A stretch of 64,000 nt of DNA from a virus (IMGVR_UViG_3300009370_000002), one strand, 5' to 3'. Counted from the first letter of the stretch, positions 40,054 through 60,774 are shown. Made by a program: numbers and translations. Notes: generated by a model not told the origin, from the sequence alone.

Positions 40054-40524
40054 TTAATTCCCCTGTTGTGGTGTTGTTATAGTTCTGCTGTCATATTCTC
40101 GGGCGATAAACCTTTGTAATTCTCTTGTGATATCAAATTTAGACAACCTCTCGTCATCGCCTTTTGATTTTATCCAAGCCGCTATATCTCTAAGGAACTG
40201 ATTCTCGATTCTGTCATCGACTATTTTGGAAACTTTATCATCAATATTTAATTTGTCAAGACCCGTGTTTGTTTTTTTGTTGTCTGGCATTTCGTATGTA
40301 TTTTTAACTAAATCAAAAATGCTCTTTATAGTGGCGCCACCAGGAATCATATCAATTACAACACTTGCGCCAAGATTCTTTAAATCATCGGTAATTTTTC
40401 CCAGACGCTTTGCTTGAATTGCGGCTTCAATTGCTTTTCTTAAATCTCCAACAGTGTTAAATTGAACTTCAGTAATAATATTTTTGCGCCAATTTTCCAT
40501 AATCAGCTTCATTCCTTTTGACAT
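40054..40524 (-). CDS. Hypothetical protein with ENWR-type N-terminal tag
   Basis: MSKGMKLIMENWRKNIITE; start after GAGGGG RBS. Confidence 0.65.
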   Translation of the reverse strand: MSKGMKLIMENWRKNIITEVQFNTVGDLRKAIEAAIQAKRLGKITDDLKNLGASVVIDMIPGGATIKSIFDLVKNTYEMPDNKKTNTGLDKLNIDDKVSKIVDDRIENQFLRDIAAWIKSKGDDERLSKFDITRELQRFIAREYDSRTITTPQQGN

Positions 40525-40551
40525 ATAGAGCCCCTCTTCCACTATAAATAG

Positions 40552-40578
40552 AAAAAAAAGAAGGTTTTCACCTTCTTT
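40552..40578 (-). terminator. Rho-independent terminator
   Basis: 8-bp stem AAAGAAGG/CCTTCTTT, 6-nt loop, T-tract on minus strand right after the 40582 gene stop. Confidence 0.75.
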
Positions 40579-40581
40579 GTC

Positions 40582-40839
40582 TTAATTTAAATAATCGTTT
40601 TCAGGCTGAACCCTTGTTAAAAGAAAGTCAACCAAACTTTGCAATTCTGGTTCTTGCGAGACAAAAAAACCCATAGTACACAGGCTAGCTATCTCCTTCA
40701 TTGTGAAGCCAAGCTCCCCTGCTCTTTTTGAAAACATTATTAAGTCACTCACCATTGCATTTAACTTTGGATTATCTTCTTTTTCTATTCTCAATAAGAG
40801 AAGCTCCATCGTCGTAAAATCAAAATTCTTGTCCATCAT
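40582..40839 (-). CDS. Hypothetical protein
   Basis: MMDKNFDF... start after AGGAG RBS. Confidence 0.6.
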   Translation of the reverse strand: MMDKNFDFTTMELLLLRIEKEDNPKLNAMVSDLIMFSKRAGELGFTMKEIASLCTMGFFVSQEPELQSLVDFLLTRVQPENDYLN

Positions 40840-41260
40840 ATCTCCTTTTTCCAAGTCTTGCGCTTTCAACCAAATTGGATGAAGATTGTGTCTTTTCACC
40901 CCCGACATTCCACAGCATTTCAATCCCATGTTTTTGACACATCTCCATCTCTGGTGTATTAGTGTCGTACCTATCTCCGCCATTGGCAAAATAGTCTGGC
41001 TTGAACCTCTCAAGAGCCTGGCATACTGAGCCATCATCATCGTTAACATTGGTTACAATAGTAACACCTTTAATATTCCCTAAGATGTATGCCCTTTCCT
41101 CGAAAGACATAAACTTATACCCTTTCTTTCTTATAAGCCATTCATCGGAATTTAAGATAACTAAGACATTCCCATATCTTGAAGCCTCTCTTATCATTTG
41201 AACATGTCCTTTGTGGACAGGGTCAAAGCCACCAGAGACAGCTACGGTTGGTATATACAT
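40820..41260 (-). CDS. Nucleotidyltransferase, TagD/RfaE-like cytidylyltransferase
   Basis: VSGGFDPVHKGH (HxGH), FANGGDR, KTQSSS. Confidence 0.88.
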   Translation of the reverse strand: MYIPTVAVSGGFDPVHKGHVQMIREASRYGNVLVILNSDEWLIRKKGYKFMSFEERAYILGNIKGVTIVTNVNDDDGSVCQALERFKPDYFANGGDRYDTNTPEMEMCQKHGIEMLWNVGGEKTQSSSNLVESARLGKRRYDGQEF

Positions 41261-41595
41261 TATTTCTCCTTTTTGTTTTTTGAAAGTAATTTTGATGCAG
41301 GGCTCTCTGGAGGAAGCTTCTCTAACGCAACTTCGCTCAAAGAGAAATTCTCAATAAAGGATTTCATCTCTCCACAAGCCCTCTTATAATCTGGTTCGAA
41401 TTCAATCGCGGTCTTTCCGCCATGACCGTGGATGGCATGAACCTCGCCAATGTTGTCATATATTGTTACGGAAGGGTGTTCAGAAAGCCATGTGACGGAA
41501 ACCTTCCCATTATCGAAGACGAAGCCTTGGGCAACTCTTCCGGTGCCGCTTATGCCGCTTTCATCTTCTTCTCGTTTTAAATAAAATATCTTCAT
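41260..41595 (-). CDS. Hypothetical phage protein
   Basis: 111-aa ORF, coupled stops and starts. Confidence 0.6.
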   Translation of the reverse strand: MKIFYLKREEDESGISGTGRVAQGFVFDNGKVSVTWLSEHPSVTIYDNIGEVHAIHGHGGKTAIEFEPDYKRACGEMKSFIENFSLSEVALEKLPPESPASKLLSKNKKEK

Positions 41596-41918
41596 TTCAG
41601 TCCCTCTGGGAGGAAAGAGGCTAATACCTCCCTGTTATCTATCCAATGATACACTTCCCCGTTCTTTATCCGAGGCTTGTCGTAAACAACTCGTTCATAG
41701 GGGAAGCCATGCATGTCTAGCCAAGCTTCAGTGGCTTCTGCATGTTCTGATGTTCTTGCTGTGAAGAACGTTATTCTGTCTCCACGGGACGCAAGGTATT
41801 TAATCCTCTCCAGCGCACCGGGGAGGGGCTTTGCTGTTATGAAATGATGGGCTTGCTCATTTGGAATATCTTCACATACAGTGCCATCAATATCAATTAG
41901 CCAAATTGTCGGTTTCAT
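41592..41918 (-). CDS. Small HAD-superfamily phosphatase
   Basis: LIDIDGTV, FFTART, KP, IDNR. Confidence 0.8.
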   Translation of the reverse strand: MKPTIWLIDIDGTVCEDIPNEQAHHFITAKPLPGALERIKYLASRGDRITFFTARTSEHAEATEAWLDMHGFPYERVVYDKPRIKNGEVYHWIDNREVLASFLPEGLK

Positions 41919-41940
41919 TTTATTTTAATACTCCTCTAAC

Positions 41941-41969
41941 ATTATAACACAATAAATAGAGTTTGTCAA
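41941..41969 (-). promoter_or_regulatory. Consensus sigma70 promoter
   Basis: TTGACA-17-TATAAT; spacer contains CTATTTA. Confidence 0.85.
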
Positions 41970-41973
41970 CCAA

Positions 41974-42870
41974 TTATTGCAAATATCCTGTTCCGACAAC
42001 TTCCCACTCCATATGAGTTTCAATGTAGCTTCCCATTGGCTCGTAAGGAACGGAATCAATCTTGTGGCGAGATAAATGGATTGCAACGAGACTCCCAGAA
42101 GGGAATGATTGCAGAACAGAACCGGGCATTGTCATGAATCCCTGATCAGAACCAGTGCAAGCAGCATAACCTAGCAACTGGGAACCATCATAGGTGTATA
42201 CAGCCAACAGTATCATGTAAATCCTAGAGGTGTCATAAGGTGCCCATGAGAATGTCATTCCGCTCCTGTAGATAGGAGCCGCAAATGCATATGAAGGATT
42301 AACATAGAGCATCGCAAAGGGCTCAATGAAGTCATATCCCTCAATAGAGGTGAACTGTATTGTCTCTGTCTCATTTGGAAGCGTTATTGTGTGCAACGCA
42401 TTCCTATCATATTCTGTTTCAAAGAGATAAGCGTAGTATTCGGTGCCGACATTGTTAGCGGTGAATGAATGTGGAGAACCTTGAACGGAGATATAAGAAC
42501 CTACGTTCACTGGGTTGGCTGATGGAGAGGTTATAACCAACTGATTGGTGCATTCTCCAAGAGGCGGCAACCACGATGTATGTGAATCGTTGATAGGTTC
42601 ATGAAACTTGGCTGTGAATTCGACAAGTAGCTCTTGACTCTCTCCCATGCATGCAGGACATGCAAGTTGTCTTAGATAGTAGTGGACATAGCCACCAACT
42701 CCTTCTATCTCATCTGGTGGAACCACAGGGCCAGGCTCATTTGCTGGTTCATCTGTCGGTTCCGTTGTAACGTGAGTCTCAGTAATCGTACTGTCATCTC
42801 CAACGTTGTTGTTCTTCATTATGCTAACATCTGATCCACATGACCAGAGCAGCAATAAAATATATCTCAT
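41974..42870 (-). CDS. Putative lipoprotein
   Basis: MRYILLLLWSCGSD lipobox-like; Pro/Thr/Glu linker; Cys pairs. Confidence 0.6.
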   Translation of the reverse strand: MRYILLLLWSCGSDVSIMKNNNVGDDSTITETHVTTEPTDEPANEPGPVVPPDEIEGVGGYVHYYLRQLACPACMGESQELLVEFTAKFHEPINDSHTSWLPPLGECTNQLVITSPSANPVNVGSYISVQGSPHSFTANNVGTEYYAYLFETEYDRNALHTITLPNETETIQFTSIEGYDFIEPFAMLYVNPSYAFAAPIYRSGMTFSWAPYDTSRIYMILLAVYTYDGSQLLGYAACTGSDQGFMTMPGSVLQSFPSGSLVAIHLSRHKIDSVPYEPMGSYIETHMEWEVVGTGYLQ

Positions 42871-42881
42871 TTATTCTCCAT

Positions 42882-43673: not shown

Positions 43674-43706
43674 TTTAATTCCTATTATAATATTAATATA
43701 AATTAT

Positions 43707-43735
43707 ATAATAACATTATAATTATAATTTGTCAA
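43707..43735 (-). promoter_or_regulatory. sigma70-type promoter
   Basis: TTGACA-17-TATTAT. Confidence 0.65.
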
Positions 43736-44112: not shown

Positions 44113-44150
44113 TTAATTTGACATCCTATCAATTGTATGTTAAATTGATA

Positions 44151-44873
44151 TTATGAACCTGCTGTTGCATCATATTCTTTCGTGGTTGGCTCTTCAACAG
44201 AGCTTGACAACTCATCTTCAAATTTGTCAAAATAAAGTTTCAAGTTTGTCACAAGATAATCAAGGAAAATTTCTTTATCTTTTGGATTGGCTAGAGAGTC
44301 GTATGCATCAAGAACATATTGGGAAATCTTTCGGAATGAGGTATAAGCCATATTCCGTCCGGTTTCGTCCATACCTTCAAGTCCGGAACCGAAGTCCTCC
44401 TCTTCTGTCGGGGTATCATCATCTTCAACAGGAATTTTCTTTTCATCGTCGGTAATATCGACTTCAATTTCCGCCTCTTCAAGTTCAGCAAATTCTGCGT
44501 CATCACCAATGGGCTCTGAAAGTAGGGCACTTGGTTCGCCTGTGGCGCCACCTTGTCTATATTTATCATTAACCAACGAAGGCATAAGTGCATCCTTGAC
44601 AGCTTTAACAATATGTGCTCTAAACGAGTCTCGTTGTTTTTTGTCTGTCGTAAGTCGCTTAAAATCTGCACGAAGTGTAGGGATAGATTTCTTAAGAACA
44701 TCCTCAAGCATGTTGATACCGGTAGAGCGATGAGGGTGTACATCTGAAATGTCACCCTCAGAAAGAACTTTTCTAATAGCTTTTCGTAAAGCTTGTTCTT
44801 GAAGGAATTTTTCCTTAAGAGCAACTTGCATTTTTTTTCTGATAATCTGCCTTAGAATAGCTTCATTATTCAT
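44151..44873 (-). CDS. Hypothetical acidic protein (head/scaffold-like)
   Basis: LRQIIR/LRKAIRKVLSE N-terminus, acidic linker. Confidence 0.55.
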   Translation of the reverse strand: MNNEAILRQIIRKKMQVALKEKFLQEQALRKAIRKVLSEGDISDVHPHRSTGINMLEDVLKKSIPTLRADFKRLTTDKKQRDSFRAHIVKAVKDALMPSLVNDKYRQGGATGEPSALLSEPIGDDAEFAELEEAEIEVDITDDEKKIPVEDDDTPTEEEDFGSGLEGMDETGRNMAYTSFRKISQYVLDAYDSLANPKDKEIFLDYLVTNLKLYFDKFEDELSSSVEEPTTKEYDATAGS

Positions 44874-45694
44874 TACTTGGTTCTCCGTTTCTGCCCTGCG
44901 TGTCCTTGTACTGCTCCTCCACCCATAGCATTACTTTCCTGAAATGGTATTTCCGAATCCTTTTGTAAATCTACAGGCTCTTCCATAGGCGCATTCATGC
45001 CCATTTCTTGTTCACAAGCAGGTCGAGCCTCACATGGAGTCATGCCTTGGGCAACTTTTTGCTCAACACAGTCTTCAATTGCTAACTCCTGATTTGACAT
45101 CGGAGGCTCTTGTTCCCATGATACTTGTCCACCCATAGGATCGCCGACACCAGCACCAAAACCTTCCTTAAGTTTTGAGAGATCCATTTTAAATCCCCAT
45201 TTCTTATTAAGGTTTTCGTTTAATTCTTTGTTTTTCCAATCTTTAAATGACATTTTTCGATTTCTCCTTTCGTTATAAATAGTTGGGTATTTTTCTTTTA
45301 AGCTGTCTTCCCAATCTCGAAACAGCATTGGGTCATTGGCTTGTAATTCCATATTTCGCAAGTGTGGGTCTTTCTGGGCGTACCCTTTTCCTGTGTAAGA
45401 GCCTAACTCCAACTCTCCATTTTCATGTTGATTGTGGTGAACCAACTCATGTGCTATTGAGCGAAGGATATCCTTTGGGTGCCTTCCGGTTATGTATACG
45501 TGTATTTCCATTGTGTTCGGGTCATAATACCCAGTTTTTGCTAAGGTTTTTGTGGCATTGTCATTATCTCCGTCAAACACAACAGTTGGAGAGCTTTCAA
45601 ATCCAAGTCTGTCCTGGGCAAAGCCACACAAGCTCTGTGTTTCATTCTCGAATCCTATTGGGGATTCTGAATTATTTATTATTTTATACTTCAT
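44873..45694 (-). CDS. HExxH protein with a probable nested in-frame start at 45253
   Basis: RSIAHELVHH; internal ACTATTTA + AGGAG + ATG (MSFKDWK). Confidence 0.6.
   Translation of the reverse strand: MKYKIINNSESPIGFENETQSLCGFAQDRLGFESSPTVVFDGDNDNATKTLAKTGYYDPNTMEIHVYITGRHPKDILRSIAHELVHHNQHENGELELGSYTGKGYAQKDPHLRNMELQANDPMLFRDWEDSLKEKYPTIYNERRNRKMSFKDWKNKELNENLNKKWGFKMDLSKLKEGFGAGVGDPMGGQVSWEQEPPMSNQELAIEDCVEQKVAQGMTPCEARPACEQEMGMNAPMEEPVDLQKDSEIPFQESNAMGGGAVQGHAGQKRRTK
45276..45283 (-). promoter_or_regulatory. Putative phage late promoter ACTATTTA (intragenic)
   Basis: Followed by AGGAG and in-frame ATG at 45253. Confidence 0.55.
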
Positions 45695-45706: not shown

Positions 45707-46213
45707 TCATATCCCTGCCATCCACTTGACAATTTTTCTTTTTATCCTTCTGGTGTGATTAACACTATCTGGCCATTTTCCAAAAATTTGTCTGTAGCGA
45801 TCACCCACCCAATGATTTGGCATATGGCCTACTTGGCTCCAATCGAAAGAGGTATAAAGCTTTTCCCACTTTTCCGCTTCTATTGCTGCGGCGTTTCGTT
45901 TTTGGTAAGCGTCTTTCGCCGATTGAGCAATCCAAGCATTTATATCACTTATCTCTGATTCTTTCGAATGCTGTGGCTTTTCTGGGTGTTTACCCCCATA
46001 TTCGTGGTCTAAATGTTTTTTAATGGTTTCATCACCCCACCCTCTTCCATATACTTGTGCGGCTAAATCAGTACAATCATCTTCGGATTTACCAGACCGG
46101 ACACAATCATTCCAAATGACTTGCCATTCCTCTTTTTTCGGTAGAGCTTCATCAAGAACAATATCTAGCTCTTCCTTTATTATTTGTTTCAACTGTTTCG
46201 TTGTCAATTTCAT
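45707..46213 (-). CDS. Hypothetical protein with MKLT..L..II.EEL N-terminus
   Basis: MKLTTKQLKQIIKEEL. Confidence 0.65.
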   Translation of the reverse strand: MKLTTKQLKQIIKEELDIVLDEALPKKEEWQVIWNDCVRSGKSEDDCTDLAAQVYGRGWGDETIKKHLDHEYGGKHPEKPQHSKESEISDINAWIAQSAKDAYQKRNAAAIEAEKWEKLYTSFDWSQVGHMPNHWVGDRYRQIFGKWPDSVNHTRRIKRKIVKWMAGI

Positions 46214-47344: not shown

Positions 47345-48415
47345 TTAAGGGTTAAAAGTGCCATTTGAGGTGCTTTTTTGGGAGATTTTCACCCTAATTT
47401 TGCGTTTTTTGGTTGGTTTTTCCTCCTCCAGGACACCAAAACCAGCCGGCGCACTCTTAGAACGGCTCATTTTCGGGCGAGAATGCCCTTTTCCTCCTCC
47501 AGAATGCTTATTTTTGCCCATTCCAATCAATTTTCGCTTCATTTTGGAGTGATTTCGCCTTTGAGCCTGCTGCCAACGGCTTTCTTCTGTCATAATTCCA
47601 TGTTTTTTGGCAAATTCTATCGCTTTTCGGAGCACTTGGGTGCCTTTTTTGGCAAATTCATCGATTTTGTCCATCGAAACCCACTTATATTCGCTATTTT
47701 CCATGAATCCTTGGATTTCAAGGTTGATATTGGGCTTTAAAGTCTCAAATTTGGACAAATACATGGTAATTTTGCTATCTTTGCCCTTGAAGGTGAAGTC
47801 AGAATACCCAATTTGCTTAGCAAACGGCAGAATTAAGCCCGTTTCTTCGGCAACTTCCCTCTCCAAACCCTCTTCAAACCCAGAATCGCCCCGATTTACC
47901 TCAATATTCTTCAGATGTCCACCGGGAATGTCCCATTTTTCCCCCTCATCGGTTCTGCGAAGCAGTAAAATGTTATCTTTCATGTCATATATGATAGCTT
48001 TTGCTACATATTTGGTGTCTGGGTAGAAATCATAAGGGTGTTTTACCGGAATTCCTCCAAAATTGTCTATGTGTTCTTGCATATTATCATCATAGTGGAG
48101 CGTAGAGCCCAATTTTTGGAGAGTTGGGAGCTTTGGGGTGTCACTAGTGTAGTGAACCCGTTCGGGCGTAAAATAGTGGCTTAACGAGAGCTTATCGAGG
48201 TGTGTCCTAATTGTGTCATTTGGGAACAATGCTTCCTTAGCAGGATCTCTTGCGGTGACAATATGTACGTCATATCCATCATTGATGTGTTTTTTTATCA
48301 AATTGATAATGTTTTTGTTGTATTCTTCGAAGATAAACTTGACATCCCCACTTGATATGTCCATATGTGACATTGCAATCGTATTATCGAAGTCAAAAGT
48401 GATAGTTTTACTCAT
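47345..48415 (-). CDS. HAD-like + NUDIX hydrolase fusion with basic C-terminal tail
   Basis: TFDFDNTI, VTAR, LHYDD; Nudix box PGGH...GLEREVAEETGL. Confidence 0.82.
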   Translation of the reverse strand: MSKTITFDFDNTIAMSHMDISSGDVKFIFEEYNKNIINLIKKHINDGYDVHIVTARDPAKEALFPNDTIRTHLDKLSLSHYFTPERVHYTSDTPKLPTLQKLGSTLHYDDNMQEHIDNFGGIPVKHPYDFYPDTKYVAKAIIYDMKDNILLLRRTDEGEKWDIPGGHLKNIEVNRGDSGFEEGLEREVAEETGLILPFAKQIGYSDFTFKGKDSKITMYLSKFETLKPNINLEIQGFMENSEYKWVSMDKIDEFAKKGTQVLRKAIEFAKKHGIMTEESRWQQAQRRNHSKMKRKLIGMGKNKHSGGGKGHSRPKMSRSKSAPAGFGVLEEEKPTKKRKIRVKISQKSTSNGTFNP

Positions 48416-49112
48416 TTTCGTCCACATCCACGCTAATTTTGTCTCCAATTGGGATTAAAAGCTTGGATCCTTCGTCCAAAGTGTACCCAAAGCGCTTTTC
48501 ACCCTTCTTTGACAGTGCTCCAACGTTAGTAAAGTCGAAATCATCAAGAATTGTCGCCTTTTGAGGGCAGTTATCCTTACCAGAGTTGTAAAAACAGCAG
48601 ATTTGCCCTACAACCTCAGTAAAAAGTATAGGAACACACTCTTGAGGTACCCTTTTCGCGTGTGCGTTGTATGCTCCTATCTCATGTCGAAGATTAAAGT
48701 TCTTCTTTTTCGCCATATGTCCTTCATAATCATGATAAGCACGAAACATTGTGTTCCAAATTAGTCCTTGTTTGCCTGTCCACACAGGATGGGTAGCATC
48801 TGAGGTGGAAACATACATGATTCCTTCGTCTGAAACCCTCTGCCGAAGTTCTCCTGCTGTCTTATAGGGGTGTTCGGGCACGAATTTGAACTCAATTCGT
48901 GAACTTAGTCGTCGAAATTCGCCTTCAAGCCACTTTCCAAGCAATTCATAGTCAGCTTTTAGGGCATTTCCCATATCAGGCGCCGTCTTATAAGCTTCTG
49001 CCACCAATTGGGCGTACAAATACCACCCTTGCTTATGTCTTCTGAGCATCATCTTTTCTTCAAGCTGGTCTTCGTCGAGATATCTACGCCAATTTTCAAA
49101 TAATCTGTTCAT
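48408..49112 (-). CDS. Hypothetical protein with ENWR tag and FRAYHDYEGH motif
   Basis: MNRLFENWRRYLDE; His-rich possible metal site. Confidence 0.6.
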   Translation of the reverse strand: MNRLFENWRRYLDEDQLEEKMMLRRHKQGWYLYAQLVAEAYKTAPDMGNALKADYELLGKWLEGEFRRLSSRIEFKFVPEHPYKTAGELRQRVSDEGIMYVSTSDATHPVWTGKQGLIWNTMFRAYHDYEGHMAKKKNFNLRHEIGAYNAHAKRVPQECVPILFTEVVGQICCFYNSGKDNCPQKATILDDFDFTNVGALSKKGEKRFGYTLDEGSKLLIPIGDKISVDVDENE

Positions 49113-49114
49113 TT

Positions 49115-50278
49115 TCAATATATCCTCAAATTTCTCTGTTGTGTGGGGTTGATTTTTCGTTCAATTTCTTCTTTATTCTCATAAGCTATCTGCTGATCTC
49201 CTAAATACTTGATATTCTTCTCAACTGCCTCTTCAAAGCCAAGAGTTTCGATATCCAAGATGAATTTATCTATCTCATCATCGCCAATTAAGCCAAATGA
49301 GTTCCAAAAACCTTCTTCTTCTTCTTGTTCGTCCTCGGCAGACGCTTGTTCTCCGTCAGGAAAATAGTGTAACGTCCCCTCATCAAGATATTGTCTCCAT
49401 TCTTGGAAAACTCCGAAAAAATTCTCTCCTGGACTTGTTCCAGCAGGAAAACTTGAAGTCCTAGCAGGAGATGTCCGCTTATTCAGCCCTGGTTGAGCTT
49501 CATCTCCATGGACTCCCGACTTATACGGATCATACTCTCTATTAAAGAGCATACTGCCGTCACTTGGGATATCCATAGCATCAAATTCCTTCGCTCTTGC
49601 CATCATATTGTCGAAATTATCAAGTTGAATCTCCATAAGCTTGGCAACATACCCCATTCTGTCAGGTGGAATCTGCAAACTGTGTGGAGATGGGGATTTT
49701 CCGTCTGTTGGTTGATAACAATCATCATTTGGATCGGGTGTGCGGTTGCCGTAATCAAATTTATCGTTCCCGCCTTTGTAAGCAGGAAGCACTTCTCCGG
49801 TTTTTGCGTTGAATGTTTCCTTATCCGGTCCTTTTGGGGTCTTCCGTTTGATATAATTGAGCTTGTTCTTCAATTTCTTCCAAACATTAGCAGCATCATT
49901 GGTTGTGCTAGCGCTATGATCGGAAGTTATGCCTCCATCTTGTTCCATCTTCATATAATATGCAACAATTTCGTACATATGGGAGCCAATTCCTCGCCCT
50001 TGCCTCTCCTCTTTCACTGCGGAGGTGCCAATCTCTTGTGTTTCGGGAATACAAGGGGTTCTTCCTTTATTATCCATCTGCATTGTTCCGAGGGTACCAA
50101 CAATCATAGGCCATCCGGCTTTTACTCTCTCAGTTGTCCATTCGTACAAGTAGACATTGTATTCCCCGTCATGTTTTCCGATGTAGAGTCCAAGAGTTTT
50201 GAGATACTCCTCTTTTTGTTTGGCGCCCATTCTTTCTTCAGTGACAAACCGTCTCCATCCTTCAAACAAATTATTCAC
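49115..50278 (-). CDS. GNAT-fold protein with ENWR-type tag
   Basis: RQGRGIGSHMY (acyl-CoA binding motif A); MNNLFEGWRRFVTEE. Confidence 0.6.
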   Translation of the reverse strand: MNNLFEGWRRFVTEERMGAKQKEEYLKTLGLYIGKHDGEYNVYLYEWTTERVKAGWPMIVGTLGTMQMDNKGRTPCIPETQEIGTSAVKEERQGRGIGSHMYEIVAYYMKMEQDGGITSDHSASTTNDAANVWKKLKNKLNYIKRKTPKGPDKETFNAKTGEVLPAYKGGNDKFDYGNRTPDPNDDCYQPTDGKSPSPHSLQIPPDRMGYVAKLMEIQLDNFDNMMARAKEFDAMDIPSDGSMLFNREYDPYKSGVHGDEAQPGLNKRTSPARTSSFPAGTSPGENFFGVFQEWRQYLDEGTLHYFPDGEQASAEDEQEEEEGFWNSFGLIGDDEIDKFILDIETLGFEEAVEKNIKYLGDQQIAYENKEEIERKINPTQQRNLRIY

Positions 50279-50841
50279 TGAACTGCTTCCTCAATCTTCG
50301 TCTTGATGCCTTCGTAGCTCCATCCGTGAATGTATTCGACAATCGTCATCTCTTTATCGATGATTACAAACGTTGGGTAACCAGCACACCGATATCCGAC
50401 ATCCAATCCATCATTTTCAAAGTCAAGAAGTTCCCCTTTCTTGCCGGATAACACCGGAGACTCAAGGTTGAATTCTTTTACCCAACTTTTCAAATCATTA
50501 CACGATGGTTGCTTGCCGTTATCGTTCTCAACAAGAACAGTTATCCATTCAAAGCCACTGTCCTTGTACATATTGACAAGCTCAACCTCTTTCATTGCAG
50601 CAGCACCACAATAATAACACCACATTGTCGAAAAATCCAATAAGATTACCTTGCCTTTGTAATCATGAAGGCTAACATATTCATTCTTGTGATTGAAAAG
50701 AGTAAAATCACACGCATGTTCACCAGGAGCGTATCCGCAATTAACAATTTCTTCGATTGCTGTCTCCTGTGTAACGTCTTTGTTATTAACTTGCTTTGCA
50801 CATGACGTAAGGGCTAGCATAAGTAACATTAAATATTTCAC
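50275..50841 (-). CDS. TlpA/AhpC-TSA thioredoxin-like lipoprotein
   Basis: LTSC lipobox, KVILLDFSTMWCYYC, GYPTFVIIDK. Confidence 0.85.
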   Translation of the reverse strand: MKYLMLLMLALTSCAKQVNNKDVTQETAIEEIVNCGYAPGEHACDFTLFNHKNEYVSLHDYKGKVILLDFSTMWCYYCGAAAMKEVELVNMYKDSGFEWITVLVENDNGKQPSCNDLKSWVKEFNLESPVLSGKKGELLDFENDGLDVGYRCAGYPTFVIIDKEMTIVEYIHGWSYEGIKTKIEEAVQ

Positions 50842-50859: not shown

Positions 50860-50888
50860 AATATAACACGTTTCGGGTGTTCTGTCAA
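50860..50888 (-). promoter_or_regulatory. sigma70-type promoter
   Basis: TTGACA-17-TATATT. Confidence 0.75.
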
Positions 50889-52237
50889 ATAATTTTCACT
50901 TTTATTCTGCGTTTGGATTCAAAGATGCCCGATTGCATACTCTGCATCACCTTGGTGTTGAAAAGCCCAATGTCTGCAATAACAAATTGTCCATCGGCAC
51001 GTTTCATAACATTTGCGTTATGCATATCTTTGGCTTGAATGTTCCAATCTCTTCCTAATCTTCTGATTGTGCTGATGATTGCATCGAAGGGGTACTTCTG
51101 TGGCTTCATTTTGCCTGGGCTCTTTTGAGCAGGGTTAGCCGTAACACCTGATGTATCATATTGTTTCTTTTGTTCTTTGAGTTTGGGGTTTGGCTGAACG
51201 TCTGCGTCCCAAATTTCGGACGATTCCCCATGCCCGGTTTCGTATGAAGACGCATGTTCACCTGATTTGGTATACTTCATTGGATACTTCTGTGAAAAGA
51301 TGGTATCAAACAATGCTCCCATCAACATTGCAACGAATTCGTGATCGTCTCCCAAGAATGCGCCTTCTTCCTCTCCAAAATCTCCCCGGTACTCATCGAC
51401 AAGAAGCGTGGAGACTCCATTCAGAAACTTGTTGAAATCTTTATTCAATTTATACAGTTCATCGATGGCAAGATACTTAATATCATCAACCATACTGCTG
51501 TCTTCCCATATCTTCATCACTTCTGTCGTCATATATGACTTGCCGCCCCTCAATATATTTTTGACATATGCTTGAGGGTTTTTCTTGACATGCTTATACT
51601 CTGGAGCCCTCATAACAGCCTTGACAATTGCTGTTGCCATATCGACACCAAATGTCATCCCAACATCACCGTCTCTGTCGGTGATATAGTCGATTAACTG
51701 AAATCCTCTTCCCTCTTGCCCTTTCATAGAGTAGTGGTAAGCTAATCCTGATATCTCTGACATAAAGAGCTTCTCTTCGCTGCTGTCCAGGGGGATGAGC
51801 TTCTCCATGATGATGTAGAGCCCACCGCCATGTTCGGAGACAGAATAGATAATAGGAAGAATCTTGCCGAGCTTTTGAGCCTCGGCATCTTGCCTGATGT
51901 TTCCCAACTCAACAAACTTCTTTACTGCTTGGTAGTTTTTCCGTTCTCGGGCATAACCCTGAGATTGATCAGAAACATATTTAAGAGCATACCTTTTGTC
52001 TCCATCTCCAACATCAGCTATAATCTCGTATACAATACCAAACATTCCTTCGCCCAACTTCTTTAAAAGGATGATACCCTGCTGTTTAAGGTAGTCTTTG
52101 TCTATTGTCTCGGAAATGACTTCTTTCTTGATTGGGTCATCGCACTTTGCCTTGAGTTTGGGATCGTCAGAAGCACAGAAAAACCGCCTTTGCTTCTCAG
52201 AATACACCTCTTTAATTATTTTAACTTTCATCATCAA
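50885..52237 (-). CDS. Protein-kinase-fold protein with large insertion
   Basis: LGEGMFGIVY, YALKYV, YIIMEKL, KDMHNANVM, IADIGLF. Confidence 0.82.
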   Translation of the reverse strand: MMMKVKIIKEVYSEKQRRFFCASDDPKLKAKCDDPIKKEVISETIDKDYLKQQGIILLKKLGEGMFGIVYEIIADVGDGDKRYALKYVSDQSQGYARERKNYQAVKKFVELGNIRQDAEAQKLGKILPIIYSVSEHGGGLYIIMEKLIPLDSSEEKLFMSEISGLAYHYSMKGQEGRGFQLIDYITDRDGDVGMTFGVDMATAIVKAVMRAPEYKHVKKNPQAYVKNILRGGKSYMTTEVMKIWEDSSMVDDIKYLAIDELYKLNKDFNKFLNGVSTLLVDEYRGDFGEEEGAFLGDDHEFVAMLMGALFDTIFSQKYPMKYTKSGEHASSYETGHGESSEIWDADVQPNPKLKEQKKQYDTSGVTANPAQKSPGKMKPQKYPFDAIISTIRRLGRDWNIQAKDMHNANVMKRADGQFVIADIGLFNTKVMQSMQSGIFESKRRIKVKII

Positions 52238-52253: not shown

Positions 52254-52261
52254 TAAATAGT
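52254..52261 (-). promoter_or_regulatory. Putative phage late promoter ACTATTTA
   Basis: Intergenic, about 17 nt upstream of kinase ATG. Confidence 0.6.
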
Positions 52262-52265: not shown

Positions 52266-53243
52266 TTATTGATAATAATACGCTATTTCAACCAAAGAGT
52301 CAGCTTCAGGCACAACAGTAAAATATACTCTGTTTTCCGCAGGTTCGTAATACCAATCTGAATATTCGGCACCATCAACAAAAACATAAATTCTATCATC
52401 ATACAATGGCTGCATTGCTAAGTCCCAATATTCATAGGGAGCAATTTCATTAGAGGCATCTGCTACACCGGCGCTCCAATCCTCTGAGCAAATATCAACT
52501 ATCTGCCCATTGAACGCATTTGTGGCGTCCATATAATTCAACCCTGTGAATACTGGCGTTGGGTTACATAATGACTCCGCCGGATCCAAATGGATGATTG
52601 AAGCAACCCCAACAGTGCTCCGGATACCAGATACCCAAGATACAAAGTGACTAGGAGAATTGATATATACTTGACTCTGGTCGTCTTCGTCGGAGACAAA
52701 CACAATCAGTAATGCTGCATCGTCTCTCATCCACGTTTGGGCATACGAACTATTCATGATGTAACCATAAGCTGCGTCAAAGCCAGCCTCAAATGCACCT
52801 CTAAGTGCCTGATTGTACATCGTCTCTGCCATCTCCGGTGTGTCTCCCGGTATGAGGGGGAATTGGGCTTCCTGCTCAGCAAATCTGTAGTCTGATGGAA
52901 TGATAGCCAGTCTCCATCCTGTAGCAGGAAGAGCATTCATCATGGCATCAATCCCTGCTAATATTCTTGGAGCATCATCATTCATAGAGCCCGATGGGTC
53001 GATTACCCACAATATGTCTACTCCATTTACTGATGCTGGTTGTATAAAATGCTCCACCCAAACATCAGCAGCATCATCCCCCGTATCTTCGATATAAACC
53101 TCAACTTCTTTCTCTACAATTACCTCAACTTCTTTCTCTACAATTACCTCAACTTCTCTGTCTTCATAAACAACTTTTTCAACTTCGTGAGTCAACATGT
53201 TGTCGCTGAAACAGGAGAAAAGCATCAAAAACAAAACAAACAT
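52266..53243 (-). CDS. vWA-domain lipoprotein
   Basis: LFSC lipobox, DILWVIDPSGSM (MIDAS DxSxS), IVFVSDEDD. Confidence 0.8.
   Translation of the reverse strand: MFVLFLMLFSCFSDNMLTHEVEKVVYEDREVEVIVEKEVEVIVEKEVEVYIEDTGDDAADVWVEHFIQPASVNGVDILWVIDPSGSMNDDAPRILAGIDAMMNALPATGWRLAIIPSDYRFAEQEAQFPLIPGDTPEMAETMYNQALRGAFEAGFDAAYGYIMNSSYAQTWMRDDAALLIVFVSDEDDQSQVYINSPSHFVSWVSGIRSTVGVASIIHLDPAESLCNPTPVFTGLNYMDATNAFNGQIVDICSEDWSAGVADASNEIAPYEYWDLAMQPLYDDRIYVFVDGAEYSDWYYEPAENRVYFTVVPEADSLVEIAYYYQ
53098..53157. repeat. 2.5 tandem copies of a 24-nt unit (EVEVIVEK)
   Basis: acctcaacttctttctctacaatt at 53098 and 53122, partial at 53146. Confidence 0.9.
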
Positions 53244-53521: not shown

Positions 53522-54673
53522 TTATTTGAGGAGCCACTTTAAATCTTCTATGGTTAGTTCTTCAACGCTGTCTGAGAACTGGTCTATAGCGAACACTGGG
53601 GTGGTTATTTGAGGTAGAATTTCCTTCCAGAATTTCGCCACCGGTGGTGGGTTACCCATTTGTAAGTCCGCTTTGGTATAAAGCATATACCATCCAACAA
53701 TTTCCCAGTTTGCCATAAGTGCTTCTTCGACTTTCCCACCGTTTGCAGCTATATCTCCTTGGTTAAGGAGGGTATTGTCTCTTAACGCCCTCATCTCTTT
53801 TTTGCTGTATGTTCTTGGTGCCGGCTCACCTTCAACACCAGCAGACTTAAGCATAGATGAAAGTTTATCAGCCATCGCAATAGCTTCCGGACTTTGTCCA
53901 TCTCTGGTTTTCATTGCTATCATTATTTCACCCCACAATTCTGGAGTTTGCATTTCAGACGGAAGCTCTTTAAAAGCCTTTCGAGTCCACTTTCTCCAGT
54001 CAGAATACATTTTCATTGTTTTGCCTGTGTTGGTGGATTTTAACTTATCCATGCCTGCTCTCTTTGGCAACTTATTTGCAAATCTACTCTTTACATCAGC
54101 ATGAGCAGTTCGCAATGTTTGTGTTGCTAAATCTCCTTTGCTAGCGTACAGTACCCTGGTTGGCTTTACATAAAACCCAAAACTCCCTGCTCTAGGTGCT
54201 CCATAAGACTTATCAAATCCATGCACAGATAAAACATCTCGCTGCTTCTGCCCTTGAGCCTTGACCCAACTTGTTCTTGAAAACTTAGCATATTTTAATC
54301 CAGCCCCTGACCATGCTTGTTGGGCATGCGCTCTATAGTTTAAATCATGAGCCCAAGTTATTTCGTTGGCAAGGTAATCTTGATCAGAGTGTTTCATAAA
54401 GAGTTGAATTAATTGTTTCTCTATCGATTCCTCGGCTGGTGTTTGGGCATATACGGCTCTTCTGCCTGATGGGTGCCCTGTCCACTGCTTATAATATTGG
54501 GGAGCATTTTGGACGTATTTTGGAAGGTTCTCGGGGGGTATGTTCTCGCCCTCAACTCCATATCCTGCTTGAAGTTTGTGCCACTGATTCAGTAATGGAT
54601 CAAGTTCATCTAAGAAATCATCGTCGGATGTTTCATTGAGGTGTCCCCTCCAATTTTCAAATAGTTTGTTCAT
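53522..54673 (-). CDS. Hypothetical protein with ENWR tag
   Basis: MNKLFENWRGHLNE. Confidence 0.65.
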   Translation of the reverse strand: MNKLFENWRGHLNETSDDDFLDELDPLLNQWHKLQAGYGVEGENIPPENLPKYVQNAPQYYKQWTGHPSGRRAVYAQTPAEESIEKQLIQLFMKHSDQDYLANEITWAHDLNYRAHAQQAWSGAGLKYAKFSRTSWVKAQGQKQRDVLSVHGFDKSYGAPRAGSFGFYVKPTRVLYASKGDLATQTLRTAHADVKSRFANKLPKRAGMDKLKSTNTGKTMKMYSDWRKWTRKAFKELPSEMQTPELWGEIMIAMKTRDGQSPEAIAMADKLSSMLKSAGVEGEPAPRTYSKKEMRALRDNTLLNQGDIAANGGKVEEALMANWEIVGWYMLYTKADLQMGNPPPVAKFWKEILPQITTPVFAIDQFSDSVEELTIEDLKWLLK

Positions 54674-54978
54674 TGTCCCAACTCCATAATTTTGTCTAGA
54701 AGGATACCCTCTGCATCTAAGAATCCTTCCTTCCCTTCATTGCTGTTCATCCACTCTGATGCCTTTCTTCGAAACAGTCCTTCGTCACCTATTGAAGCCA
54801 TAAACTGATTGTAGGCATCTTCGAGTTGTTGAGGGCTTGGGTCGGAGAGCAACATATTAAAAGAATTTAAAAGATTGTTTAAATTCTGCTCCTTGCCTTC
54901 TGGTGCATTTGATAAATGATAGGACGACTCATACGCTTCTGTCAAATATCTCCGCCAATTTTCAAATAGTTTATTCAT
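54670..54978 (-). CDS. Hypothetical protein with ENWR tag
   Basis: MNKLFENWRRYLTE; start after GGAG RBS and ACTACTTA. Confidence 0.7.
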   Translation of the reverse strand: MNKLFENWRRYLTEAYESSYHLSNAPEGKEQNLNNLLNSFNMLLSDPSPQQLEDAYNQFMASIGDEGLFRRKASEWMNSNEGKEGFLDAEGILLDKIMELGQ

Positions 54979-54994: not shown

Positions 54995-55002
54995 TAAGTA
55001 GT
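54995..55002 (-). promoter_or_regulatory. Putative phage late promoter ACTACTTA
   Basis: About 17 nt upstream of 54978 ATG at a divergent junction. Confidence 0.6.
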
Positions 55003-56044: not shown

Positions 56045-56049
56045 ATAAT

Positions 56050-56078: not shown

Positions 56079-56111
56079 TTAATTACTAACACACATTCAT
56101 GAGGTATCAAT

Positions 56112-56315
56112 ATGAAAGTTGGAGATTTAGTATTTATTGAAAGAGCTTATGGCTCTAAAGGTATTATTGTTGCCATGAGAAAAGAAATGTACAGAACAGC
56201 CTTAGTCTGTGACGTTTGGCTTTATGAATTAGACGACAACAAAGACGCAGAAGGCAAAAGGAAAATCTACACTTTCATGCAATCTCAGTTAGAAGTTATA
56301 AGCGAGGGGGCGTAA
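56112..56315 (+). CDS. KOW/SH3-like miniprotein
   Basis: MKVGDLV...GIIV; GAGG RBS; stop lies inside tmRNA 5' end. Confidence 0.65.
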   Translation: MKVGDLVFIERAYGSKGIIVAMRKEMYRTALVCDVWLYELDDNKDAEGKRKIYTFMQSQLEVISEGA

Positions 56316-56619
56316 TGGTTTCGACAGAGTAGTACAGAGATTTAGAGTGCAAGCAAAATTGCAAATAACTGCAAACAATAATAATCATTACGAAGTAGCC
56401 CTAGCGGCTTAATCGGGTGGTCGTCTCGAACCATCTAACCAAGAGAGACTAAGTGGGTGACTCCACCGAAATAAACAAAGCCAACAAGAACCTGTTTATT
56501 GATAGTTTCTCAGCAAAAAAACTATATGATTTTGTTCGTTTATAAGTAAACGAGCCAAGCTTGTGGATGACTTTATTTAACTGCTACTGTGGACGAGGGT
56601 TCGATTCCCTCCGCCTCCA
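56306..56619 (+). ncRNA. ssrA: tmRNA, tag ANNNNHYEVALAA
   Basis: 5' GGGGGCG pairs with 3' CGCCTCC-A with G3:U; TTCGAC D-like loop; GGTTCGATTCC T arm; tag ORF 56371-56412 ends ALAA-TAA. Confidence 0.95.
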
Positions 56620-56624
56620 CTTAT

Positions 56625-56699
56625 GCGAGTGTAGCTCAGTGGTAGAGCGTCACGTTGCCAACGTGAGGGTCGTGGGTTCGAATCCCATCACTCGCTCCA
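56625..56699 (+). tRNA. tRNA-Gly(GCC)
   Basis: Cloverleaf GCGAGTG/CACTCGC, anticodon loop TTGCCAA, TTCGAAT loop, encoded CCA. Confidence 0.95.
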
Positions 56700-56720
56700 T
56701 TTAAAAAGAAACGAGAAAAT

Positions 56721-57109: not shown

Positions 57110-57110
57110 A

Positions 57111-57521
57111 TTATATTTTTTCGAATTCTAATTCGGGAGCATATTTCTTCTTCACTTTGTCGCTTAATGGGATTGCTTCGCCATCCCCGTCTATCCTAAC
57201 GAATACCATCTCAGTCGAGCAGACTAATCTTTGGGTGCCGTTATAAACGCTGTGCCTACGTGCTTCTAGACGGAGTGTGATGCTTGTATTTCCGACTTTT
57301 TTCACTTGCCCGTATATCTTGATTATCTGCCCTGGGCGAACGGGTTTTTCGAACGTTACGGACGATATATGCTTAGTCACCATTCGAGGTGAATCACAAC
57401 ATTGAGCAGCATATGCAGCACCGGCTTCATCAAGCCATGCAAGCATTCTGCCACCGAACAGGTTCCCATGGTAGCCCACTTGACTGGCCTTGCAGAAATA
57501 GGTTGTTATTAAGTCCATCAC
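57111..57521 (-). CDS. Hotdog-fold acyl-CoA thioesterase (YciA-like)
   Basis: HGNLFGGRMLAWLDEAG, FEKPV, VGNTSI, MVFVRID. Confidence 0.88.
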   Translation of the reverse strand: MMDLITTYFCKASQVGYHGNLFGGRMLAWLDEAGAAYAAQCCDSPRMVTKHISSVTFEKPVRPGQIIKIYGQVKKVGNTSITLRLEARRHSVYNGTQRLVCSTEMVFVRIDGDGEAIPLSDKVKKKYAPELEFEKI

Positions 57522-59599
57522 TTAATCCTTATCTTGATTCGTCTTTTAGCCTCTGTATACGTTTCTTGCCCAAAGCCTTGGGTATGTTTGATTGCTTGCA
57601 TACCAGCACTATCAACAAATATCCCAGCATACCTGTCATTAATTTCTTTTTGGATTTTGTCTAAGTCTAGTTTATTCATCGCTATTTCGTAAATTTCATT
57701 AATATGGTTGTCAATCCATTTGATGTAATCTATGGTGAAGTCAATTGCCTCTTTGGTTTGCAATTTGGTAATCCAAATGTTGATGTTCGCTCGAATCTCA
57801 GGACTATCACTTTTAACGTCTCCCTTGATATCGCCTTGCCCTGGTAATCCCACCATCACTTCAAGATGCCTTGGGAAGCTGCTGATATGGTTGGTGAGTC
57901 CTTTCCTTGTATCAATACCGGGGATTGTCTGCTGTTTCCAAGCCGCTTGCCTCGCCAATACGTCAACCTTTTCCATTGCCGATTTAACTGCTTGTTTAAT
58001 TGGCTCCTTTGAAAGCCTCAATATAAACCCGACATAGCGCTTTACTCTCCTGTCTCTTTCCGCTGAAGGGGCATAGCCTTTGAGCGGCATGTTGAAAGAC
58101 TTGATTTTCAAAGGAACCTTAAATGATTGCTTTTGCATGAAGTATATCTCATGATCCTCTTCCTCAAAGCTGGCTTCAAAGTGTTTGAGTTGCCCCTCAA
58201 GCCTCCAGAGATTCTGAGCTATATTTGAAATGTTCACTCTACCCTCAGCATTCAGGTATGCCATCAACTCTTCCAAGACGATTTCAGCCATCTCCACTTG
58301 AAAATCTTCTAGCCCCTCATCGTCATAAGAGCTTTGCAAATCCCGGCAATATCCTCTAGCATCGTCGGCATCTTGCCAGGTTCTATGCTCAAAGGGTATG
58401 CTGTATTTGATGTTCCATGGTGCCATATCGTCCAATTCAAAGCTGGTGCCATCGAGGTTCACCTCCTGATAAAGATTATCCCCGGCTAATTCATCCAGCC
58501 TCGCAACAATATCTTCTTCCGCGTTATCCCATGCACCACGTATATCATCATCTTCATACTGGTGCAATTCAGGTATCTCAAATGAGTGGTTTAGCTCAGC
58601 ACTAATTGAGATGTATGCGGTGTCATAAGTTTCTGCGTGGGCATAAATCCCAAGAGCTTCGGTGTTGTAGTGGCCGCTGTCGATGGCTTGTTCCAGTTCT
58701 TCAAGTTCCCACGCAGAACCTCTAACCGGCGGATTGTCTTCTACGTCAGCAGATATGGCTTCTAATGCTCTCAATATCTCTTCGCCGTACATTCTTTCCA
58801 ATTCACCAAGGGGCTTAGGTTCTCTTGATTCAATTGGTAAGTCCTCATTATCGAATCTGTCCCAGTATCCTTCAATTATTGGCGCATCATCGTCATCAAG
58901 CGATACTTGAATTGCGACTTTGGCATATTGATCATCGGGCTTCCTTCTATCGTCTTTAATGAAATAGAAGACTTTCGCTTCATCTTCGGTATAATCCTTG
59001 AAGTATTCATTCCCTGGCTGTGAAATACACCACTTTGTCTTTCTGCCGTAATGGCATGACGCTTCAACGGTATGAGGGCGAATAACAAAGAGGTGTTCAT
59101 CTTCATAAATAACAACCCTTTCTTTTTCTGACGTTCTCTCTTCAGCCTTGTCCCTGCCTTTACGAGCTTTGCCCACACGTTTCATGACAACCTCTTCTTT
59201 GTAGGTTCGAAGAATATCAGTTGGAGAGCCATATGCTTTGATGTCTTTCTCTTGAAATTGTTGACTGAACTTTTCAAATAGCTTAAGAGAATCGATAACT
59301 TCACTTCCCATATGCCCGAGCTTAAGCATATCAGAGCCCCAATCAAGGTATTTAATGCGCTGCTGTCGCTTTGGGGCAAATTCTTTGCCTTGTTCTTTGA
59401 ATTTCTTCAGCATATCTGAAGTGACACCTTGCCACATCCCAGGCCCCGAGTGTCGCCCGTATATCCAGACAAGAAGCCGCCGAAATTTCATTTCAAGGTG
59501 CCTATCTTCGCCCCAATAGGAATCATATAGTTTATCTTCTTTGGCTTCGTCCAAAATTATTTCATTAATTGATTCTTTCAATACTCGAATTTTAATCAT
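57518..59599 (-). CDS. 693-aa hypothetical protein with basic beta-strand tags at both ends
   Basis: MIKIRVLKE...EAKRRIKIRIK; internal ASCHYGRKTKWCIS motif. Confidence 0.6.
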   Translation of the reverse strand: MIKIRVLKESINEIILDEAKEDKLYDSYWGEDRHLEMKFRRLLVWIYGRHSGPGMWQGVTSDMLKKFKEQGKEFAPKRQQRIKYLDWGSDMLKLGHMGSEVIDSLKLFEKFSQQFQEKDIKAYGSPTDILRTYKEEVVMKRVGKARKGRDKAEERTSEKERVVIYEDEHLFVIRPHTVEASCHYGRKTKWCISQPGNEYFKDYTEDEAKVFYFIKDDRRKPDDQYAKVAIQVSLDDDDAPIIEGYWDRFDNEDLPIESREPKPLGELERMYGEEILRALEAISADVEDNPPVRGSAWELEELEQAIDSGHYNTEALGIYAHAETYDTAYISISAELNHSFEIPELHQYEDDDIRGAWDNAEEDIVARLDELAGDNLYQEVNLDGTSFELDDMAPWNIKYSIPFEHRTWQDADDARGYCRDLQSSYDDEGLEDFQVEMAEIVLEELMAYLNAEGRVNISNIAQNLWRLEGQLKHFEASFEEEDHEIYFMQKQSFKVPLKIKSFNMPLKGYAPSAERDRRVKRYVGFILRLSKEPIKQAVKSAMEKVDVLARQAAWKQQTIPGIDTRKGLTNHISSFPRHLEVMVGLPGQGDIKGDVKSDSPEIRANINIWITKLQTKEAIDFTIDYIKWIDNHINEIYEIAMNKLDLDKIQKEINDRYAGIFVDSAGMQAIKHTQGFGQETYTEAKRRIKIRIK

Positions 59600-60774
59600 T
59601 TAATCTTAATCCTTATTTTTCCCTCAGAGAAGGTGCTCGGACCCCAATTATTGCGTCGATGGCTCTTCTCAGCAGCAGCCCACTCTTCGTCTGATGGCGG
59701 ACGATCAGGAGGATAATGTTCATCGTCAAATGGGGGCGGCATATCATCAGCTTCCGGAGGCAGCGGAGGCAAATCTTTGGAATGAAACTTCTTAGCATCA
59801 TATCCAAGCTCAGGACAGTGAAAGAGCCCCTTGTCGCCCAAAATTTTTATTATATCAGGATCCTTCTTAAATATTTTCGAAATCGATTGCTTAGTCCAAG
59901 GAACATTTGCCTTTTCATCGTCAGACATTGTACGCAGTTTGGAACTCAGCGCTTTTTGTGAATCTTTCTCCCAAGCACCATAATCTTCCCCATGCGACCA
60001 CTTAACAGCAGCCCCTTGATCGCAGTCATCTTGAGGAATTGTTGGAGTCAATTGTTTAATGCCATATCTATCCGCATTTCTTTTGTTTATATCCATTTGA
60101 TCAGCTTCAACATCTCCCCTACTTGCTAAATAAAAATCCCAAACCGGCTTAGCATGCGAAGATACCATGTCTCTCGAAGATGTAAGTCCACCACCCAAAA
60201 TTGTTGCCATTTCCATGGCAACATCGTAAAGTAACGGACCCCAGCCTTTAGTTGTTTGGTAGGTTGAGTCAACAACAAATGCCCCCAAACATTCACCGCC
60301 ATCGAATTGCCCAGCTTTTTTGAAAGTAATGGAACCTCCAGGCATCCCCTCCATTGGGCTCCCTTTTGTCATTAAGTCGCCGGATATTCCTTTTTGCTTT
60401 CCAGTGTCAAATTTCAATAATATCGCAGGTTCAACAAACTTTGGGATAATCGCGCCATAAGATACTTCAAATTTTCTACCGGTATCGGTTGCTATTAAGC
60501 AGGGCATAGGCGGACCAAGCTTGAGAATTTGAGCAAAATATTTTTTAGAAAAATCATCTCGCTTTTGTTTGTCATAGAATCGCCAATTTTGCCTTGCAGC
60601 AGGAGTTATCCCAATATTGAAGAGTTCAGATAATTTCCATAAGCCATACTTTTTCCATAAACCGCGAAGCCATTCCTCGCCTTGCACGTTATCCGCAAAC
60701 CCCGACAAGTCTTCAGCATTCTTTGCCGCTTCCGTCAGCATTGCTTCTCGCCATTGTTCCATTATTAATTTCAT
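59596..60774 (-). CDS. GNAT-fold protein with EQWR tag, paralogue of 49115-50278
   Basis: KGWGPLLYDV, GGLTS, PVW, TP..PQDDCDQ shared with the 49115 protein. Confidence 0.55.
   Translation of the reverse strand: MKLIMEQWREAMLTEAAKNAEDLSGFADNVQGEEWLRGLWKKYGLWKLSELFNIGITPAARQNWRFYDKQKRDDFSKKYFAQILKLGPPMPCLIATDTGRKFEVSYGAIIPKFVEPAILLKFDTGKQKGISGDLMTKGSPMEGMPGGSITFKKAGQFDGGECLGAFVVDSTYQTTKGWGPLLYDVAMEMATILGGGLTSSRDMVSSHAKPVWDFYLASRGDVEADQMDINKRNADRYGIKQLTPTIPQDDCDQGAAVKWSHGEDYGAWEKDSQKALSSKLRTMSDDEKANVPWTKQSISKIFKKDPDIIKILGDKGLFHCPELGYDAKKFHSKDLPPLPPEADDMPPPFDDEHYPPDRPPSDEEWAAAEKSHRRNNWGPSTFSEGKIRIKIK

Follow-up and report, generated by a model that had tools for sequence, protein, structure and literature searches.

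Unrelated proteins of an uncultured marine T4-like phage open with a common short leader, a candidate capsid-targeting signal

Tagged genes and their expression context

We analysed a 64,000-nt stretch of the viral contig IMGVR_UViG_3300009370_000002 (the window; coordinates count from its first letter), in which six minus-strand open reading frames (ORFs) open with a common leader of 14-15 residues, M-x-x-(L/I)-(F/M)-E-x-W-R...(L/I/V)-x-E, termed tag A here (Table 1). The six leaders end in I-T-E, L-D-E, V-T-E, L-N-E, L-T-E and L-T-E, and the bodies that follow them, cargos A to F, showed no mutual similarity by BLASTP. An earlier note on this DNA had located the six tags, an internal copy near the C-terminus of the gene at 49115-50278 and a variant at 45253, and all of these readings were borne out. 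The internal copy lies 98 residues from the C-terminus of cargo C, where it looks like a former gene start that became fused, and the variant is present as MSFKDWKNKELNE, at an internal Met within ORF 44873-45694. The same note regarded the bodies as unrelated except for two GNAT paralogues; the BLASTP result agrees with the first part, but the paralogy of cargos C and F is weak, with an alignment confined to the GNAT-like motif region (E=0.15-0.68).

The earlier note had also suggested a motif scan with an enrichment test, for which the core motif was defined as [LIVMF][FMILV][EDQ]xW[RK] and the full tag as M-x-x-core...[LIVMF]xE. Six-frame translation of the window gave seven occurrences of the core motif, all seven on the minus strand in real ORFs and six of them after a start codon, whereas dinucleotide shuffles gave 1.95 core matches on average. 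The full tag was observed five times in the window and was absent from 100 dinucleotide shuffles. The arginine codon of the six copies is CGC, CGT, AGA, AGG, CGG and CGA, and the leucine codons vary too, indicating that selection acts on the peptide and not on the DNA. The explanation of the tag as a DNA repeat was ruled out, since synonymous codons differ between the copies.

The GC content of the window is 33-43% and its minus strand carries nearly all genes, among them those for PhoH, an exonuclease, M23-type peptidases and sugar-pathway enzymes, together with a transfer-messenger RNA (tmRNA) and a tRNA. No DNA-level similarity to GenBank phages was found with a 10-kb piece of the window as query. 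Its distant syntenic relatives are two complete IMG/VR contigs, G1 (G001, 195 kb) and G3 (G003, 204 kb), with 65-79% nucleotide identity to the window in conserved genes. Since these relatives encode a gp17-like TerL, a portal, Peptidase_S77 and a Gp23 major capsid protein, we assign the window to an uncultured marine T4-like phage.

Among 7-mers found in the 45 nt ahead of each gene, CTAnTTA was enriched most in G1 and in the window and was among the top six in G3, with 20 occurrences in G1 against 1 expected. Copies of it lie ahead of TerL, of a scaffold-like gene that comes before the capsid gene, of several tail-like genes and of the tagged units. Leader-bearing genes lie no more than three genes downstream of CTAnTTA in 28 of 35 cases, compared with 133 of 555 other genes, a comparison for which gene clustering makes the Fisher p-value optimistic. 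The statement of the earlier note that most tagged genes belong to ACTANTTA-led units was upheld: CTAnTTA lies 17-39 nt upstream of the starts at 40512, 54978 and 60774, and the other three tagged genes are located further down such units.

Besides the cargos, Table 1 lists neighbouring genes, some of which open with two other leaders, tag B (MKITKxQLKQIIKEE...(Y/F)LxE) and a third class (MIKVKIIRES...LLDE).

Table 1. Tagged genes, neighbouring genes and CTAnTTA copies in the window (aa, amino acids; the arrow marks the predicted cut)
Feature	Position	Strand	Remarks
Tag-A starts	40512, 49112, 50278 (GTG), 54673, 54978, 60774	minus	
Cargo A, 152 aa	40054..40512	minus	leader MKLIMENWRKNIITE at 40468-40512; no Pfam family
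Cargo B, 234 aa	48408..49112	minus	leader MNRLFENWRRYLDE at 49071-49112
Cargo C, 387 aa, GTG start	49115..50278	minus	leader (M)NNLFEGWRRFVTE at 50237-50278
Internal tag copy VFQEWRQYLDE	49379-49411	minus	in cargo C, followed by 98-aa acidic C-terminal part
Cargo D, 383 aa	53522..54673	minus	leader MNKLFENWRGHLNE at 54632-54673; no family
Cargo E, 102 aa	54670..54978	minus	leader MNKLFENWRRYLTE at 54937-54978; heads CTACTTA-led unit
Cargo F, 392 aa	59596..60774	minus	leader MKLIMEQWREAMLTE at 60730-60774; GNAT-like motif region
CTATTTA	40545..40551	minus	upstream of cargo A, just after terminator-like hairpin and T-run
CTATTTA	52254..52260	minus	upstream of kinase-like gene; unit continues through cargos C and B
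CTACTTA	54995..55001	minus	17 nt upstream of cargo E; leads E-D unit
CTATTTA	60795..60801	minus	21 nt upstream of cargo F
PcfJ-like protein, 693 aa	57518..59599	minus	third leader class MIKIRVLKESINEIILDE↓AKED; C-terminus RRIKIRIK
Kinase-like protein, 449 aa	50885..52234	minus	N-terminus MMKVKIIKE, C-terminus RRIKVKII
HAD-NUDIX fusion	47345..48415	minus	without N-terminal leader
Tag B protein, small, acidic	39705..40052	minus	leader MKLTEKKLKQLIAEELKSLNE
Tag B protein	45707..46213	minus	MKLTTKQLKQIIKEELDIVLDE↓A
Tag B protein	62091..62429	minus	MKLTKEQLINIIKEE; CTATTTA at 62449-62455 leads gene

When the six cargos were compared with Pfam and PHROGs, a weak GNAT match was obtained and nothing else; the GNAT-like region of cargo C is weak. 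Cargo A is a distant homologue of a G3 tag-A protein, and the IMG/VR matches of cargo D are only to the leader itself. The body of cargo B forms a conserved family with 63 homologues, all of them metagenomic, in which His and Asp residues are invariant. Foldseek gave no match for cargo B at E <= 0.001 and the best VIA-align Z was 3.0, with no fold match in the PDB; a protein atlas search returned viral hypothetical proteins only. The C-terminus of cargo F is GKIRIKIK. Among the neighbours, the 449-aa kinase-like protein contains a short stretch similar to a G3 tag-A protein, and each of the two domains of the HAD-NUDIX protein has homologues among the tag-A proteins of other phages. The 693-aa PcfJ-like protein had no match in fold searches. 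No radical-SAM or similar enzyme, of the kind that might recognise and modify a RiPP-like leader, was present in a Pfam run on window neighbours, which was not a systematic neighbour analysis.

The 273-aa ORF 44873-45694 looks like two genes joined: its metallopeptidase-like N-terminal portion corresponds in G3 to a gene of its own with 146 aa, and the junction in the window carries a CTATTTA at 45276-45282 together with the internal Met at 45253. The tmRNA and a tRNA-Gly(GCC), which follows it directly, lie at 56306-56620 and 56625-56699, the tmRNA encoding the tag peptide ANNNNHYEVALAA, and this region is partly conserved in G1 and G3. The left end of the window interrupts a further ORF, at 2-9199, which is longer than 3065 aa.

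Distribution of tag A and nature of the cargos

In an IMG/VR scan that used degenerate DNA coding for M-(K/N)-x-L-F-E-N-W-R as its pattern, tag A was found at no fewer than 157 ORF starts and in at least 120 distinct full-length proteins of 69-837 aa, with the consensus MKLLFENWRKYLNE. No tagged ORFs were found in ~186,000 prokaryote genomes (596 Gb), which contained 14 pattern matches against ~9 expected by chance, and a literature search on tag A found nothing. Among the matches listed, eight tag-bearing contigs had a completeness of 90% or more, and Peptidase_S77 was present in all of them, an association that does not discriminate, given that tag A is found in a single T4-like clade. These eight genomes are 180-204 kb in size, and the shorter tag-bearing contigs are, by CheckV completeness estimates, nearly all fragments of genomes of ~180-200 kb or larger. 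Based on this distribution, tag A appears to be a property of a single viral clade, whose members are marine T4-like phages, uncultured and with genomes of 180-200 kb. When N-terminal 14-mers were clustered without bias, tag A formed the largest group in both G1 (8 proteins) and G3 (7), and a looser pattern gave 9-10 tag-A proteins per genome.

Pfam analysis of 119 tagged bodies identified NUDIX (4), protein kinase (4) and DUF7178 (4), as well as single matches that include 2H-phosphoesterase, RNase T, Amidase_2 and HAD/NT5C, while most bodies matched nothing. This content bears on the possibility that tag A is a common plug by which decoration or adhesin-like proteins attach to the exterior or tail of the virion. 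The position of the tagged genes in late-type units would suit such a role; the bodies, however, are enzymes and small acidic proteins instead of binding or fibre domains, and a cut motif at the end of the leader would be pointless for an external anchor. We therefore regard an exterior plug as improbable.

Boundary and exchange of the leader

We then considered residue conservation among the 120 tag-A proteins listed, leaving out the six residues that the pattern of the scan had already imposed. At the free positions, K occupies residue 10 in 63%, Y/F/H residue 11 in 92%, L/I/V residue 12 in 87% and E residue 14 in 85%. In 95 of the 120 proteins residue 14 is the exact end of an [LIVMF]xE motif, whereas the background of this motif is 2.4% per position. 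Beyond residue 14 the conservation collapses, with no residue above 27%, and A, E, D or G mostly occupies the position that follows. It is known that T4 gp21 cuts after L/I-x-E and that residues 4 and 7 of the T4 capsid targeting sequence (CTS) serve in targeting and residues 8 and 10 in processing (PMC9026906). The conservation of tag A thus ends at (L/I/V)-x-E, the cut motif of the T4 protease, and by analogy F5 and W8 followed by L12 and E14 can be read as the T4 CTS layout with four residues added to its length. In the capsid protein of the clade, LLRE↓A or LLRE↓Q aligns with FLTE↓A, at which gp23 of T4 is matured. A likeness of the tag to an LLxKW...LLEG stretch at the N-terminus of the major capsid protein was judged too loose and was not used.

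The leader also seems to be a module separable from its cargo. In the AlphaFold2 (AF2) model of cargo B, built with 39 homologues, the body has predicted local distance difference test (pLDDT) values of 85-97 while residues 1-19 remain below 50, indicating that the leader is predicted to be disordered and to lie outside the folded body. A Sec, Tat or lipoprotein signal, which would need a core of ~10 or more hydrophobic residues behind a basic N-region, was ruled against, as tag A has no hydrophobic run and is instead an amphipathic peptide with charges at E6, R9, K10 and E14, and the true lipoprotein signals in the window (50275-50841 and 52266-53243) look quite unlike it. An amphipathic helix that holds enzymes at the inner membrane would be another use of such a peptide, and L4, F5, W8, Y11 and L12 would indeed share one helix face, with basic residues present. 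The near-invariant E6, N7 and E14, however, fit protein recognition better than lipid, AF2 predicts a helix of only 4 residues, and the replacement leader tag B is highly charged, so that membrane binding is quite improbable.

The replacement of one leader by another was seen in two families. In the cargo B family, most of the 63 homologues carry tag A, while ~10 carry tag B, MKITKEVLKRIIKEELEAFLGE, on the same body, and the two tags align at their (Y/F)-L-x-E ends. In the family of the 693-aa protein, ~30 orthologues start with MIK(V/I)(K/R)I...LLDE↓AKEDD and one starts with tag A, MKILIEGWREFLDE↓AKEED; both leaders join the body at the same point, and the swap point therefore coincides with the predicted cut site. 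In these alignments, orthologous bodies thus exchange the three leader classes exactly at the ...L-x-E↓ junction.

A further short motif occurs at the opposite end of some proteins. The C-terminal sequence (R/K)RIK(I/V)(R/K)I(K/I) ends three window proteins (57518-57550, 59596-59628 and 50885-50917), and KIRVKI is found near the end of the HAD-NUDIX protein (47345-48415). The RIKIRIK-type C-terminus is kept across the 693-aa family, also ends distant proteins with other N-terminal leaders, is present in 2 of the 120 listed tag-A proteins and is disordered in AF2; it may be a portable C-terminal label. A pairing of the N-terminal MIKIRVLK with the C-terminal RRIKIRIK in the 693-aa protein was considered and rejected, as AF2 leaves both tails disordered. 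The basic tail of the HAD-NUDIX protein (47345-47560), MK.KL.G.G.NKH..GGK...P..RSKS.P.GFG, has ~50% identity with the tag-A proteins L094 and L018; these are otherwise different proteins from other phages that also share KIRVKI, and the tail is another portable module that possibly binds DNA.

Partial tags were observed in the relatives as well. The genes at 95925-98324 in G1 and 2366-4678 in G3, each upstream of a tagged gene, carry at their 3' ends a partial tag that terminates in ...GNWRRFIS and ...KRWKQFLRG, respectively, at the stop codon. These copies look like recombination scars of cassette insertion within tag-coding DNA. They would also suit an explanation in which tag A has no targeting role and is kept as a recombination or expression cassette that aids the shuffling or translation of genes, as would the gene content around the tags, which varies between relatives. 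A cassette of this kind is nevertheless very improbable: the DNA is not conserved, with synonymous codons that differ, whereas in the peptide Trp, Arg and Glu are kept throughout a set of at least 120 proteins.

Head assembly and the possible role of the leader

The head module of the clade was examined for similar N-termini. The prohead protease, encoded in G3 at 107421-108044, starts with M..KLLRE(Y/F)YELC(E/D)↓GG. The gene directly after it contains ...DAWRKFLTE↓A in G1, and its G2 counterpart reads ...DSWKNYLVE↓S. A tag-B-like start is carried in G2-G5 by a 137-152-aa product, a scaffold candidate, whose gene follows that of the protease. In T4, the first ~10 residues of gp21, gp22, gp24 and gp68 end with L/I-x-E, and the T4 CTS resembles the N-terminus of gp22. 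The head-module N-termini of the clade may therefore parallel those of T4, an analogy that is suggestive and not proof. Two genes after the protease, the head module of G3 encodes a 79-aa basic protein (L132 8485-8724) with a weak match to ribosomal protein S21 (E=1.4e-4); its other neighbours in that module gave nothing useful in Pfam and PHROGs. Small proteins between tag-A and tag-B genes carry yet another conserved N-terminus, MA(R/I)RKN(T/K)KRIDPRYF(L/M).E (L001 872-1396 and 2324-2800; L002 1018-1557; G1 8215-8523), and in several relatives the terminase-portal module begins shortly downstream of these genes.

It has been known that the T4 CTS, MKTYQEFIAE, is carried by IPI, IPII, IPIII and Alt and is removed by gp21 (Mullaney and Black 1996; PMC3012670, PMC9026906), and that the internal proteins of T-even phages are a diverse set in which the CTS alone is conserved (PMC3012670). 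Like the CTS, tag A is short, N-terminal and found on unrelated proteins, starts with MK, ends with aliphatic-x-Glu and has two aromatic positions three apart around a Glu, and it occurs in T4-like phages whose near-complete members have the same protease family. Unlike the 10-residue CTS, tag A has 14-15 residues; whereas T4 has four CTS proteins, the tag-A genomes have ~9-10 tag-A proteins and further tag-B or third-class proteins (2-5 in G1 and G3), the cargos include enzymes of up to ~800 aa, and at least three leader classes swap on the same bodies. In the giant phages phiKZ, 201phi2-1 and SPN3US, ejection proteins have propeptides that are cut after Glu by gp21-like proteases (PMC5694885, PMC7411985). 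Those systems resemble the one proposed here in that many head-internal proteins are loaded via protease-removed leaders and paralogues can share N-termini; their propeptides, however, are mostly longer than 100 residues with the cut motif S/A-x-E, while tag A is short and T4-like.

Based on these observations, we lean modestly towards the reading that tag A is a capsid-targeting leader, removed by the prohead protease, that loads varied enzymes into the head. During prohead assembly the amphipathic leader would dock the cargo to the scaffolding core, where F5 and W8 would do what Y4 and F7 of the T4 CTS do; after closure of the shell, Peptidase_S77 would cut past the Glu of the terminal (L/I/V)-x-E and set the mature enzyme free in the head, and the cargo would then travel with the DNA into the next infected cell. 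The cargo set would be modular, comprising NUDIX, HAD, kinase-like, GNAT-like, 2H-phosphoesterase and exonuclease proteins as well as many unknown proteins, and at least two other leader classes, tag B and the third one, can replace tag A on the same body. We infer the docking, cleavage, packaging and injection steps from observations on the tag itself, its distribution, boundary and promoter context, its predicted disorder and its natural swapping. A capsid-targeting role had been proposed in the earlier note, and at the level of sequence it is supported by the portable leader with its sharp (L/I/V)-x-E end, the S77 protease in near-complete relatives, the late-type promoter context, the disordered leader and the leader swaps at the predicted cut site. 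Its picture was nevertheless too narrow, because the tag is clade-wide and belongs to a set of three or more N-terminal leaders that can stand in for each other, beside a C-terminal motif.

The most serious competing explanation is that tag A docks the proteins not to the prohead but to some other hub and so brings diverse enzymes together in the infected cell, and that no packaging takes place. The hub might be a chaperone of phage or host, an adaptor of a protease, a complex for replication or nucleotide metabolism, or an enzyme that modifies the proteins. Many cargos are indeed cytoplasmic-type enzymes (NUDIX, HAD/NT5C, kinase, exonuclease), and a leader that is disordered and exposed in the AF2 model could serve such docking. 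This explanation leaves unaccounted for, however, both the prohead-protease motif that ends all three leader classes at a fixed place and the similar N-termini of the protease-flanking genes, and no candidate partner gene was identified; we consider it unlikely.

Here, we need to consider that several points weigh against capsid targeting. The (L/I/V)-x-E motif is short, and tag A has a pattern in common with the T4 CTS but no alignable sequence homology; this lack of homology to MKTYQEFIAE lowers the probability that tag A is the T4 CTS, though not that it works like it. Tag A was not found in GenBank phages with a 20-aa tag query or with a conserved 167-aa tagged protein, and Flavobacterium phage immuto, the nearest cultured phage by TerL, has no ENWR site. 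The cargos also include enzymes of ordinary metabolism (HAD/NT5C phosphatases, NUDIX), for which a reason to be packaged is not obvious. The role of CTAnTTA as the late-promoter equivalent of the clade is itself inferred, and the gene clustering behind the CTAnTTA comparison and the non-discriminating association with S77 count on the same side.

Beyond the capsid-targeting role of tag A, we tentatively raise a wider possibility, to which we give somewhat less than an even chance: the clade may run a set of combinatorial address labels, with at least three swappable leaders and possibly the C-terminal (R/K)IK(I/V)(R/K)I(K), by which at least a dozen enzymes per virion would be injected before gene expression, the labels recombining at the cut site. 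The injected arsenal would then be far larger and more modular than that of T4. If the leader works as proposed, a sequence rule would allow the effectors that ocean phages inject in the first minute of infection, proteins otherwise annotated as 'hypothetical', to be read from metagenomes. Phage heads could also be loaded with foreign proteins by means of new short tags, and the natural swaps at L-x-E↓A mark the exact fusion point for a reporter. The capsid-targeting principle of T4 would, in that case, be a general one that evolves by leader swaps.

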